From contig OZ024757.1 of the NCBI GenBank assembly GCA_964016885.1, positions 16,616,001 through 16,680,000 of the forward strand: DNA of 64,000 bases. The letters are read 5' to 3'. The position numbers and the translations under genes are program-made. Source of the DNA: Eledone cirrhosa. Its lineage: Eukaryota. The notes under the pieces were generated by a model. That model was not told the origin of the DNA. It made no database searches and was given only the letters and a program-made list of their open reading frames with translations. Shown here one piece after another: positions 1,706 through 61,520 of the stretch (the stretch's first letter is position 1; each line of letters starts with the position of its first letter).

Positions 1706-1910
1706 GGAACCAGTAAGACCCCGACGGCTGAGCTCAAGCCGTTTCTGGACGGCTAATTCTGGACTATTTTTAGTCCAGAATTAGCCGGCGAAACGGTTTG
1801 AGCTCAGCCGTCGGGGCCTTACTGGTTCCTATTACCCACTCTACTACCCTAAGTATTGAGTACTTTGGTGCGTTATGGTCCACCTGGTTCCTTACCACAT
1901 TTCCTTCGTT
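1706..1910 (+). mobile_element. Family A fold-back mini-element in (TA)n
   Basis: ~60 bp inverted arms plus unpaired ~80 bp tail; TA runs on both sides; homologous copies at 9368, 37947, 59588, 60878, 61326. Confidence 0.85.
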
Positions 1911-1924
1911 ATATATATATATAT

Positions 1925-2095
1925 GAGGCTCGACACTCGACGGATGAACTCTGGAATTTGTTGTCGAAACGGCAAGAGCTCAGCCGTCAGGCACCAACTC
2001 TATGATATATTTACACTCTGCTATCCGAAGTATCGAGTCCTTCGCTGAATAATGGTCTCATTAGTTTAAAACTGGTATAACCCTGATCAATATCT
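1925..2095 (+). mobile_element. Diverged relative of family A (PLE-terminus-like)
   Basis: Shares GTCGAAACGGCnnGAGCTCAGCCGTC and the ACTC...TATCGAGT hairpin with family A; TA-flanked. Confidence 0.6.
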
Positions 2096-3269
2096 CTCTC
2101 TATATATATATGTGTGTGTGTGTGTGTGTGTGTGTGTGTGTGTGTGTGTGTGTGTGTGTGTGTGTGTGTGTGTGTGTGTGTGTGTGTGTGTGTGTGTGTG
2201 TGTGTGTGTGTGTGTGTGTGTGTGTGTTGGTGTGTGTTGGTGTGTGAGAGGGTGAAAGAGGTATGTCTTATTTGCGAGTAGCTGTGTGTGCTTGTGTGCT
2301 GTGTGTTGTGTACTGTATCTATTGATCCAGAATTTTCAGTAATCCACTTATGGAGAGTAAGTGTTGAAATATTCATTTGTATCCAAACGACGCTTCGTAA
2401 AGCAGCCATTTCCCCCAAACATTTCGAAGAGAATAATACCTAAATATAGGATTAAATAGATTCCCTGAATAATGAATTACACCGAATTGTAATGTGTCTA
2501 TTACCTTTCTAACAATTGGTCTATATGGTAATATTTATATGTAATATACCATGTTTACATATGTTTATTATGTACACATATAATATGTATATGTATATAT
2601 ATATATATATATATATATATATGTATATGTATATGTATATATATATATATATATATATATATATATGTATATATATATGTATATGTATGTATATATATAT
2701 ATATATATGTGTGTGTATATATATATATATATATATATATATATATATATATATATATATGCATATATATATATATGCATATATATATATATATAATATA
2801 TATATATATATATATATATATATATATATATATATATATATATATATATATATATATATATATATATATATATATATATATATACATATACATATACATA
2901 TATATATATATATATATATATACATATATATATATATATACACACACACACATATATATATATATATATATATATATATATATATATATATATACATACA
3001 TATACATATATATATACATATATATATATATATATATACACACACACATGCAAGTTACTGTCCAATGTACATTAAGTCTTAAAACCGCTATATATAGGTT
3101 GTTCGTGTTGGATTGGAAGCTAGCTCTATACCGCACACACACATACACTCATACACATACATACTCACACACAGTGGCTCACATACACACACACACACAT
3201 ACACTCACACACACTCATATATACATATATATATGTATATATACATGTATATATATATATATATATAAA

Positions 3270-3779
3270 TAGCACTTCAAAGGTCAATTACAAAAAGGAT
3301 AGTTGGCGTGATAGGCCTTGACTATTGGAGTCGATTAGAAAAGCTCAACCTTTATTCTCCCCAACGTTGCCGTGAGCGCTGCATTATCTGCATGATGTGG
3401 AAAATATTCCATCAGCATTGCCCAAATGATGTTGGCATCACCTTTAAGGTACACCCAAGGCTTGGGCTCCGTGCCATTCGCCCACGACAAAAATCTCACT
3501 CGCATCTCAAAACAACAATACGGTACAATTGTTTCACCTAAATTGGCCCCACTCTCTTTAACATTACACCAAAACATATTAAAACGGAAACAGACCCCAT
3601 AAAGTTCAATAGGTCTTTGGACAAATTCCTTCAAGAAATTCAGGATGAACCTCCTACACCCGGATATGCCTCTGTAAACAATAACTCTCTACTTGAGTGG
3701 GCCATGGTGTATAAATCCTGATTTGAAATACTTCGCCAGGTGGTGCCGAAACCTATCAAAGTTATAAAAGTTAAAGTTT
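3270..3779 (+). mobile_element. CR1/Crack-like LINE 3' end (pseudogenised ORF2 C-terminus)
   Basis: LDYWSRLEKLNLYSPQRCRER...* then LDKFLQEIQDEPPTPGY...NSLLEW: typical CR1-clade C-terminal motifs; internal stop at 3539-3541. Confidence 0.8.
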
Positions 3780-4003
3780 CACACACACAACACACACACA
3801 CACACACACACACACACACACACACACACACACACACACACACACACACACACACACACACACACACACACACACACACACACACACACACACACACACA
3901 CACACACACACACACACACACACACACAGACACACACACAACACACACATATATATTCATATATATATATATATATATATATATATATATATATATATAT
4001 ATA

Positions 4004-4193
4004 GGAAAATAGTCAGGACACCTACGGCTGATCTCCGGCCGTTTCGACCGTTTGATCCGATCTAGCGGTCGAAACGACCGGAGCTCAGCCGTCGGGGTCC
4101 TGACTCTTTTCCTATTACCCACTCTACTACCCTAAGTATCGAGTACTCTGGTGCGTTATGGTTCATCTGCTATCTTACCACACCTTCTTTGTT
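4004..4193 (+). mobile_element. Family A subfamily fold-back mini-element
   Basis: Imperfect inverted arms around GATCCGATC, same tail (CCTATTACCCACTCTACTACCCTAAGTATCGAGTAC); TA-flanked. Confidence 0.8.
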
Positions 4194-4341
4194 ATATACA
4201 TATATATATATATATATATATATATATATATATATATATATATATATATATATATATATATATATATATATATATATATATATATATATATATATATATA
4301 TATATGTATATATATATATGTATATATATATATATATATAT

Positions 4342-4421
4342 AACGTAGGAGTTGTGGTAAGGAAACAGATGGACCATAACGCACCAGAGTACTCAATACT
4401 TAGGGTAGAAGAGTGGGTAAT
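4342..4421 (-). mobile_element. Family A tail-only remnant
   Basis: Matches only the unpaired tail of family A; TA-flanked. Confidence 0.8.
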
Positions 4422-4702
4422 TATATATATATATATATATATATATATATATATATATATATATATATATATATATATATATATATATATGTACATATAT
4501 ATATGTGTGGGTGTTTGTTTGTGCGTGTATGTGTATGAATGTATGTGTGTATATATAACATAAATATGTTCAAGTAATATATATATATATATGAATGTAT
4601 ATATGAATGTATATATATATATATATATATATATATATATATATATATATATATATATATATATATATATATATATATATATATATATATATATATATAT
4701 AT

Positions 4703-59190: not shown

Positions 59191-59546
59191 CGTTTCTGAA
59201 TTTGTTTAGCAAGATTCTTTATCTGAAATCGTGTGTTGAAACCGATATTGTTATACTTTGGGGGGTCATGTTGCCAATAAGAAACACACGCACCAGTTGC
59301 TTTCACTTCAATTTATTATTATAATAAATTTATAATAAATTTATAAATTTATAAATTTCTGGTTGGTTGGTTCCACAACCAGATAGTTGTTTATATATTG
59401 TCATAGTTCTTTCGTCACACACTCTGTGACCTCTTCAGTGACTGGGGATTCCTTTCTTTGTTTCTGTGCCTCTCCTTTGTTCTGTCCTACGCCATTTTGG
59501 TGCGTGTGTTTCTTATTGGCAACATGACCCTCCCAAAGTATAACAA
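59191..59546 (-). mobile_element. Family D fold-back element with ~200 bp centre
   Basis: Arms at 59245-59294 and 59498-59546; TA-flanked. Confidence 0.8.
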
Positions 59547-59587
59547 TATATATATATATATATATATATATATATATATATATATAT

Positions 59588-59790
59588 AACGAAGGAAATG
59601 TGGTAAGGAACCAGGTGGACCATAACGCACCAAAGTACTCAATACTTGAGGTAGTAGAGTGGGTAATAGGAACCAGTAAGACCCCGACAGCTGAGCTCAA
59701 GCCGTTTCGACGGCTAATTCTGGACTAGAATTAGTCCAGAATTAGCCGTCGAAACGGCTTGAGCTCAGCTGTCGGGGTCTTACTGGTTCC
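59588..59790 (-). mobile_element. Family A fold-back mini-element
   Basis: Centre GGACTAGAATTAGTCC; TA-flanked. Confidence 0.85.
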
Positions 59791-60438
59791 TATATATATA
59801 TATATATATATATATATATATATATATATATATATATATATATATATATATATATATATATATATATATATATATATATATATATATATATTAATTAATT
59901 AAGTAACTGTGTTCCCAAATAACACCGTTTGTCCCAATAACAAACTAACTGTGTGCACTCTGATATTGTAACATCATGTGGCGAGTGACAAACGGCGTTC
60001 TTGAACGAATTCTATTCGTCTGGTTCGTTAAAATTAATATATATATACATATATATATATTTATATATAAACTAGATGGCCCGTCCGGCTAGGTATACCG
60101 GCATTTTATCTTTTCAGGAATCCCCCCTCCACTCCAGTGCAAAAGATACCGCACGCCCTCTCAAGTCAGCGAGGGTGGGGTGGGAGGTTAACGTGCTCTG
60201 ATGTTGGGTTTGAATAGTTTTTAGGATTCCCTAGTTCAGCAGCCAGTACGTTAAAGTTACAACAATAAAGGCTGAACAGAGAACACATTTTTTAACAAAC
60301 TTTCCAATAATTTGTACAACAATGAGTTATATGCTTTGCTGGTGAATATTCAACAGAGTTAAATTATATATATATATATATATATATATATATAATATAT
60401 ATATATATATATATATATATATATATATATATATATAT

Positions 60439-60769
60439 ATAAGATCAAAAGATGGTTAAAAGAGTTCCCTGTATTTTATTATGCGCATTTCAAAAACAAA
60501 TATCATCATGCAATAACATTTGTGTTTTCATCAGATAAAATAGGAAGACATGATATGTAGGTTAAAAAACACTTGTGAATAGTGCAGTTTTAAATCAACA
60601 TATGATATGTTGATTTAAAACTGCACTATTCACAAGTGTTTTTTAACCTTCATATCATGTATCCCTATTTTATCTGACGAAAACGCAAATGACATCTCAT
60701 GATGATATTTGTTTTTGAAATGCGCATAATAAAATACATGGAACTCTGTTAACCATCTTTTGATCTTAT
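60439..60769. mobile_element. Head-to-head family C palindrome with two intact hammerheads (60472-60542 minus; 60666-60736 plus)
   Basis: ~165 bp arms meeting at CAACATATGATATGTTG; CTGATGA and CTGACGA cores. Confidence 0.88.
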
Positions 60770-60877
60770 GTATTATGTATACTCCAATCCTACAAACTGT
60801 AGAGTGCTTTTTATCCGATATCTGCATTGCTTTATTGTACTACAATAAAACTCACCTCCTACATATATATATATATA

Positions 60878-61068
60878 GGAACAAGTAAGACCCCGACGGC
60901 TGAGCTCAAACCGTTTCGACGGCTAATTCAGTACAGAATTAGCCGTCGAAACGGTCTGAGCTCAGCCGTCGAGGTCTTACTTGTTCCTATTACCCACTCT
61001 ACTACCCTAAATATTGAGTACTTTGGTGCGTTATGGTCCACCTGGTTCCTTACCACATTTCCTTCGTT
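60878..61068 (+). mobile_element. Family A fold-back mini-element
   Basis: Centre AATTCAGTACAGAATT; TA-flanked. Confidence 0.85.
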
Positions 61069-61325
61069 ATATATATATATATATATATATATATATATAT
61101 ATATATATATCAGGAAAAGAAATTGAAAGTGCAACTAGAGTCTTTATAAGGATATTTACTTATTTCCTTTAACGCTTTCACAGTTCTTATGCTTTTCAAA
61201 ACTATAATGGAGATGGTGGGCTTGTGGTTTGTTTCACACACACACACACACACACACACATATATATATATATATATATATATATATATATATATATATA
61301 TATATATATATATATATATATATAT

Positions 61326-61520
61326 AACGAAGGAATTGTGGTAAGGAACCAGATGGACCATAACGCACCAAAGTACTCAATACTTAGGGTAGTAGAGTGG
61401 GTAATAGGAACAAGTATGACCCCGACGGCAGAGCTCAAGCCGTTTCGACAGTTATTTCTGGACGTCCAGAAATAGCCGTCGAAACGGCTTGAGCTCTGCC
61501 GTCGGGGTCATACTTGTTCC
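61326..61520 (-). mobile_element. Family A fold-back mini-element
   Basis: Centre CTGGACGTCCAG; TA-flanked. Confidence 0.85.

Follow-up and report, generated by a model that had tools for sequence, protein, structure and literature searches.

Asymmetric fold-back stubs in (TA)n tracts of Eledone cirrhosa as ends of Penelope-like retrotransposons

A 64,000-nt stretch of the Eledone cirrhosa genome (contig OZ024757.1, positions 16,616,001 to 16,680,000; here called the window) carries many short palindromes set in or against (TA)n, each built as arm, fold-back and arm, usually with an unpaired tail at one end. An earlier note, made from the letters alone, sorted them into four unrelated families, A to D. 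It proposed that each palindrome is made at insertion by cDNA snap-back, within a non-autonomous system dependent on Penelope-like elements (PLEs) that could be mistaken for miniature inverted-repeat transposable elements (MITEs). What are these stubs, and how does one insertion come to have two arms and a single tail? Coordinates below are positions in the window, L-numbers are loci fetched from the 3.0-Gb genome, and statements about cited papers refer to the excerpts consulted.

Parent elements of the stubs

The stubs of families A to D are the terminal-repeat-plus-tail ends of Penelope-like retrotransposons that bear open reading frames (ORFs). Extension of the ends confirmed the suggested PLE origin: ORFs with reverse transcriptase (RT) and GIY-YIG endonuclease lie upstream of A and D ends, and RT or endonuclease parts were found for B and C. 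In the A parent L139, arm and tail lead directly into a 786-aa RT/GIY-YIG frame; the repeat downstream of it has no tail, and upstream lies an inverted copy that has one. The D ORF is present in L141, as a 942-aa frame with RT and GIY-YIG, and in L220; the D tail continues into the next unit. In the B parent L173 the tail runs into the N-terminal part of an ORF. Long C copies (L225, L232; 2,412 matches) end in an endonuclease of the same type as that of A, and the parent proteins of A and B share 49% identity where they align. Contrary to the earlier note, A, B and C are thus related.

The layout of the long copies is also that of PLEs. Partial tandem pseudo-long terminal repeats, with the tail forming the beginning of the following unit, were found in A, B and D; no such junction was seen for C. 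An inverted 5′-truncated copy with a tail on one end was found in all 18 long A pairs analyzed, in C pairs and in D. Other PLE ORFs, some of them long and open, lie beside A or D ends (L145 7234–9564, L138 956–3097, L147 5151–6614 and L137 8449–9660).

Judged by their motifs, A, B and C are probably of Hydra type and D of Neptune/Nematis type. RWR and DKT occur in A and B. The A endonuclease has no CCHH; it has a CxCx5C linker, and CxxC and CxH around conserved E and N. The C endonuclease likewise has CxxC and CxH and no CCHH. The D translation (L053/L141) has a CX2-5CxxC linker and CCHH in the endonuclease, which would place it in Neptune or Nematis, two clades that these motifs do not separate. 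Pfam gave no match for L139 and RVT_1 in L141 at E=8e-4, below the cut-off; the nearest Atlas clusters carry PF26215/PF01541.

The Hydra clade, which has the Octopus member Hydra-1_Obim, resembles A to C in RW[K/R], DKT, the CxCx5C linker, the lack of CCHH and CxxC/CxH, and also in a hammerhead in the repeat, (TA)n targets, an inverted 5′-truncated copy and a one-sided tail (Craig 2021, PMC8557442). By eye, the A protein resembles the published excerpts of Hydra-1_Obim. Compared with that clade, whose tails are 30–40 nt, tails here are 58–80 nt. The majority of A copies are reduced to two arms and stop at a hard 5′ limit; such stubs do not appear in the excerpts of the clade description.

With our own descriptor, a minimal type I hammerhead ribozyme was found on the sense strand of A (long copies), C and D, with 8 matches in the window and 0 in 3 one-strand shuffles. 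The descriptor missed the B hammerhead, which has a 3-bp stem II and was seen by eye. The A hammerhead has a U3-A8 core variant, and A stubs retain only its 3′ half. Rfam gave no hammerhead on the A or D regions; over the whole window, the matches listed held only microsatellite and microRNA noise below gathering scores. Hammerhead-like motifs also occur in TA-bounded segments at 57950–58090 (core 58020), 44241 (−) and 9960 (−), one of them inside a fold-back. These are probably more PLE families.

The stubs share with MITEs a short, non-coding, high-copy and hairpin-shaped form. They share with non-LTR (long terminal repeat) retrozymes short length, lack of coding sequence, high copy number and a hammerhead and PLE link (bioRxiv 10.64898/2026.07.22.740005, excerpts). 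Unlike both, the stubs have no fixed internal sequence, no matching ends and no tandem arrays (no array of mini units was seen), and A has half a ribozyme only. Assignment to class II MITEs was rejected, in line with the earlier note: there are no fixed terminal inverted repeats (TIRs) around an inherited interior, the tail is one-sided, the hairpin centres vary, and the ends lead into RT ORFs. The separate non-autonomous system proposed in that note is not supported. Most subfamily variants of the short hairpins (minis) recur in long ORF-linked copies, and nothing from downstream of the tail is present in the minis. The stubs belong to a known class of element and are a known kind of debris. 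With tens of thousands of hairpins per family, annotation as MITEs would be a likely error, and the hairpins are probably a source of double-stranded RNA.

Arms, tails and template

The A-tail 30-mer has 25,095 exact matches in the genome and the D-tail 30-mer 14,459, with 0 for each reversed control. A hairpins with both arms up to the centre motif number 4,051 genome-wide. Two sets of A copies were used. The first 100 places of tail matches gave 70 loci with 76 matches, 73 without duplicates; together with 8 window copies these form a tail-selected set of 81, of which 61 are hairpins. L100, whose tail runs into an ORF, was left out as a duplicate. The centre-selected set holds 49 distinct minis from 50 places. 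A first sample, ranked by likeness to the query, was enriched for the query's unmirrored variants and was kept out of the arm and centre counts.

The association with (TA)n held: (TA)4 follows 81 of 81 tail-selected A copies, compared with a background of 7.9% of bases in the window and 10% in the fetched loci. B and C insertions lie in (TA)n by inspection. The outer start is fixed in 58 of the 61 A hairpins, a count partly built into the parser; it is fixed in the centre-selected set too. Paralogous empty sites gave two usable cases among 138 hairpins, both with TA shorter than at the occupied site, and are too few to use. No clear empty paralogous site was found for 16 long pairs; outside the TA, their flanks contain ends of a further repeat.

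The two arms meet at many different points. The 49 centre-selected hairpins have 36 different centres, which supports the claim that palindromes are made anew at each insertion. That the centre differs in every copy was too strong, as a few recur: a blunt join of GAC to GTC four times and an AAATTT join four times, the latter spanning three subfamilies. Joins in the 61 A hairpins comprise 33 with microhomology, 18 with insertions and 10 blunt.

Variants mirrored in both arms had been taken as private to single copies. They are subfamily variants. That at 38044 and 59686 was found in 18 of the 81 copies as well as in L139, the intact parent, and that at 61415–61431 belongs to another subfamily. 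Four mini subfamilies have matching long copies; one end variant (4 copies) and the longer T runs described below have no long parent within the sample. A and C pieces are also present in the sequencing run of a second organism (X5). Contigs from four runs, aligned to 60075–61255, are interrupted at its TA tracts.

We think it probable that each hairpin consists of two cDNAs that were primed at two internal sites of one sense RNA, ran off its 5′ end and were joined head to head. Three sets of counts bear on this proposal: tails, arm lengths and agreement between arms.

Exactly one tail was found in 48 of 49 centre-selected A minis, with none having two, and in 18 of 18 long A pairs, the fetched subset of 30 pairs hand-counted among 100 listed long contexts. 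If each enzyme could take either site freely, one tail would be expected in half of the insertions; it is nearly always present. At 7 of the 7 start sites whose continuation could be seen (two in A, two in D, the B tail end, and the arm ends of C and of a fifth family, E), the parent continues with TA. This supports the TA microhomology that had been proposed. By eye, an ACTC...GAGT stem lies near the first start site in the tails of A, B, C and E (1831–1909, 43650–43732, 60781–60862 and 43797–43875); alignment backs A with B and is weak for C and E.

Either arm can be the longer one. In the 61 A hairpins the tailless arm is longer by at least 10 nt in 9 and the tailed arm in none (p=0.004). 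This count omits two internal deletions, L079 and L121, in which one arm, but not the other, has precisely lost hammerhead stem III between a pair of short direct repeats. In the 18 long A pairs the tailless arm is longer in 10, by ∼100–2450 nt, the tailed arm in 6, and 2 are about equal. In 30 D copies the tailless arm is more than 100 nt longer in 8 and the tailed arm is longer in about 5.

The subfamily of one arm agrees with that of the other in 44 of 47 and 37 of 38 cases, whereas 35% and 45% are expected at random. Thus both arms come from the same template. In one D insertion, L220, the two arms share a tract of A>G changes (35 and 34, read in the sense direction) that is unique in the genome. 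This shared tract points to an edited sense RNA as template, and to one molecule. A supposed flank of this insertion turned out to be D's own next unit.

The first alternative is snap-back, in which a single cDNA (or an antisense template) turns back on itself and is copied into the second arm. Self-priming on antisense RNA has been proposed for PLE inverted repeats (Arkhipova 2013, PMC3846280). One tail and mirrored variants would follow automatically, microhomology is present at 33 of 61 centres, and some centres contain short templated copies of nearby sequence. The 6 long pairs with a longer tailed arm and the edited L220 also fit. We nevertheless consider this route unlikely, and as a general route, as first proposed for these hairpins, it fails unless most of the asymmetries are later deletions, since a copy cannot outgrow its strand nor gain a tail from a tailless strand. 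The longer tailless arms (9/61 minis, 10/18 long pairs, 8/30 D) contain sequence absent from the tailed arm. An antisense template is further opposed by the sense orientation of the A>G edits. At some centres (L214, L216) both arms carry an extra G with a spacer between, which also speaks against self-copying.

The 5′ limit and integration

Arms of A stop at a common place. Of the tailed arms, 48 of 81 stop 50–64 nt upstream of the arm end, as do 47 of 61 of the tailless ones. Beyond this limit reach only 7 tailed arms, at 107–2736 nt (L122 at 152 and L128 at 107 among them). In 25 arms ending at the A at −58, the preceding base is G in 14, C in 9 and A in 2. The excess of extra G against A at −58 has p=0.004, or p=0.013 without two ambiguous joins, and no G precedes −58 in the 100 listed long contexts, read by eye. 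Reverse transcriptases add an untemplated base opposite the cap. In D, 5 of 30 copies have arm ends grouped between −253 and −271, and C and E also have one 5′ limit each. No pile-up distinguishable from scatter was found at the predicted ribozyme cut of A (−17), where 4 copies end at 14–18.

Arm length is all or none. A long partner arm accompanies 6 of 7 long tailed arms and 1 of 74 short ones (p=1.5e-7), which suggests that the form of the RNA, not chance, decides. The 5′ limit of A is probably a capped transcription start inside the ribozyme. The bases around it resemble the initiator consensus. In characterised PLEs, transcription starts inside the terminal repeat (Craig 2021, PMC8557442).

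The limit could instead reflect a stall or a cut in the loop of hammerhead stem II, with priming at two sites otherwise kept. The A limit does lie in that loop. In B, C and D, however, the limit is upstream of the whole ribozyme. An extra G is expected from a cap, and the start sites of characterised PLEs lie in the repeat, as cited above. A stall or cut therefore seems improbable.

Under priming at two sites, the two ends of a cut (TA)n target would each prime, at different internal start sites of one sense RNA. A dimer would place one subunit at each start site, helped by TA pairing of 2–3 nt. When the first junction after a promoter in the terminal repeat is used, both enzymes would run off the capped 5′ end, and the product would be a dead 150–400-bp hairpin. 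When more element RNA lies upstream, as in read-through, multi-unit or circular RNA, both would run long and give the classical long inverted insertion. Repair would then join the two cDNAs head to head. In the one PLE tested, the protein-binding region is downstream of the tail (Frangieh 2024, PMC11167929). The stubs lack this region and are probably dead ends.

A counterpart exists in vitro. The protein of Poseidon_Ac cleaves both target strands and extends them, starting at two internal sites that flank the tail; product length follows the RNA 5′ end, and a dimer is predicted (PMC11167929). The target there is AT-rich, in likeness to (TA)n here. In contrast, Poseidon_Ac showed no strand preference per site and no homology at the start. 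Here the two arms nearly always use one site each, and every start site seen is followed by TA.

LINE-1 offers a second comparison. In its twin priming, both target ends prime on one RNA, and the result is an inversion whose parts are joined through microhomology. The L1 priming sites are the 3′ tail and a variable internal one, and sequence is not duplicated. Here both sites are fixed and close together, unlike those of L1, so that the same stretch is copied twice.

Adineta Penelope (PMC3846280) and Schistosoma elements (Cervera and De la Pena 2014, PMC4209133) likewise have head-to-head repeats, minimal hammerheads, an optional tail on one arm and the U3-A8 core variant seen in A. Schistosoma has opposite-strand hammerhead pairs 100–700 bp apart. 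Self-priming on an antisense template was the explanation given there; the counts here favour two primers and sense RNA. Target-site duplications, unlike in those systems, are not readable inside (TA)n.

Several observations weigh against priming of two cDNAs as proposed here. The edited L220 equally fits fold-back, as its shorter arm lies wholly inside the other strand, and it is the sole such case in 769 alignments. Two-tailed insertions exist (L081, and L220, where the second tail is a tandem junction), as do tailless-only chimeras (L032, L039). Deletion of palindrome centres after insertion could make some of the asymmetries. T runs in many centres are longer than in nearly all long copies and need slippage or a mini-specific template. 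The samples are the first places on contig C1 and are not random. The extra G was tested in A only, and the A limit coincides with the stem II loop. Finally, the lizard element primes in vitro without homology (PMC11167929).

Two kinds of unusual insertion were also seen. In chimeras, an A arm is joined to one from D, E or another family (L032, L036, L038, L039 and L040, among 16 matches); a deletion between neighbouring insertions could also make them. Reiterated short junctions and 15–38-nt duplications lie in TA tracts beside insertions (L220 6090–6390, 54154–54260, L229, L231–L232 and L253), hinting at stuttering synthesis or long target duplications.

Inheritance of the hairpins as such, MITE-like or from non-autonomous PLE masters, with centres eroding and arms homogenised by gene conversion, would explain the fixed maximum arm length, the fixed outer ends, the few recurring centres, and the longer T runs and 4-copy end variant without a long parent in the sample, but is very unlikely given 36 centres in 49 hairpins, recurring centres that cross subfamilies, matching long copies for four mini subfamilies, a one-tail layout that extends to 3-kb arms with ORFs and is not that of TIRs, cross-family chimeras, and minis without the region where the tested PLE binds its protein.

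A broader reading is tentative, and we regard it as possible rather than likely. The stubs would be a genome-wide record, tens of thousands deep, of PLE integration, in which a dimer splits the start sites and the form of the RNA sets the outcome. A capped first junction would give a dead hairpin, and read-through or circular RNA a long copy. Transcription of A would start inside the hammerhead, leaving the 5′ copy with half a ribozyme, able to cut or circularise only in concert with the copy downstream. From weak hints, the telomerase-related enzyme may also lengthen the (TA)n from which it primes and thereby supply itself with targets.

Already published in the papers excerpted here are inverted copies that have a tail on one side, the insertion of Hydra elements into (TA)n, hammerheads, and pairs of hammerheads lying close together on opposite strands, as are two internal start sites in vitro (Frangieh 2024). 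In the excerpted parts of Craig 2021 (PMC8557442), the origin of the PLE inverted repeats and one-sided tail is called undefined. The run-off limit with an extra G, the pairing of one site with each arm and the all-or-none length were not found in the literature searched. Nor did that literature yield a paper describing run-off stubs or twin priming for PLEs; Schostak 2008, Evgen'ev and Arkhipova 2005, the bioRxiv supplements and Repbase/Dfam, outside the search, may describe them. A 2026 Octopus repeat annotation (PMC13282606) does not discuss stubs in the parts of its text consulted, and its library was outside the comparison. The stubs allow in-vivo tests by counting: of the single tail per insertion, of which arm is longer, of the sharp stop with its extra G, and of a length that is all or none. 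For Hydra elements not yet characterised, they predict to within a few bases where transcription starts.

Copies and other repeats in the window

All copies named in the earlier note are present, and all fold as arm, centre and arm, with or without a tail. The first A stub (1706..1909, +) has a tailless arm at 1706–1765, a centre, a tailed arm to 1830 that bears the 3′ half of the hammerhead, and a tail at 1831–1909. Close to it, 1951..2095 (+) is a diverged relative (70%) with a half-hammerhead and a tail-like part, without fold-back. The copy at 4004..4194 (+), listed before as a plain A member, is an A-like stub of a diverged subfamily, 85% identical. Further A stubs lie at 9369..9569 (−), 37948..38104 (−), with a 6-nt overlap at the arm join, 59589..59790 (−), in the subfamily of the intact parent L139, 60878..61067 (+), in that of the long copy L092/L138, and 61327..61520 (−), in that of the long copy L128. 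Lone A-type tails are found at 4343..4421 (−), between TA tracts, and at 54067..54143 (−), the latter followed by reiterated short junction sequence in TA tracts. Short arms of A end at TTCC followed by TA in 7 of 7 window copies and those of D at AACAA followed by TA in 2 of 2, as described before; the ends of B short arms are not fixed.

Of the Hydra-type family B, the stub at 4704..4847 (−) has a tailed arm with a minimal hammerhead and a partner arm of only ∼11 nt. A second stub, at 43547..43732 (+), has (TA)n and then (GA)n on its left flank, and a further tailed, truncated B end lies at 30809..30913 (−). Family C, probably also of Hydra type, has one stub at 60441..60862 (+), with two ∼165-nt arms joined at 60603 and a hammerhead in each. 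It had been called symmetric, yet it has a ∼80-nt tail (60781–60862) common to L083, L210, L021 and L147. Single tailless C arms lie at 21300..21476 (+), which has a full hammerhead and begins at the same 5′ limit, and at 39872..40048 (+).

The D stub at 57794..57933 (+), putatively Neptune/Nematis-type, has short arms and a 58-nt tail. In the other D stub (59191..59545, −) the tailed arm reaches ∼258 nt upstream, into the D run-off zone, the tailless arm is ∼46 nt, and a full hammerhead lies at ∼59400–59440. Family E, which the earlier note did not name, has a stub at 43791..44023 (−) with the same tail/arm/arm layout as the others. Its pieces here and in L216, L141, L007 and L048 share a 5′ limit, and the region of the ribozyme core resembles that of D.

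In the window, 23 of 56 merged tracts of (TA)10+ touch an A–E end. Insertions are nested in one another's TA flanks, most densely at 57794–61520. Other repeats are also present. A 204-nt unit resembling a short interspersed element occurs in three tandem copies at 819–1424 and again at 14596–14777. The stretches 33357–37185, 50215–52601, 45669–47454 and 15073–19613 carry long minisatellites of 39, 31 and 12 nt, and arrays of (CCA)n and (TGG)n that oppose each other and form an imperfect inverted repeat of ∼700 nt.

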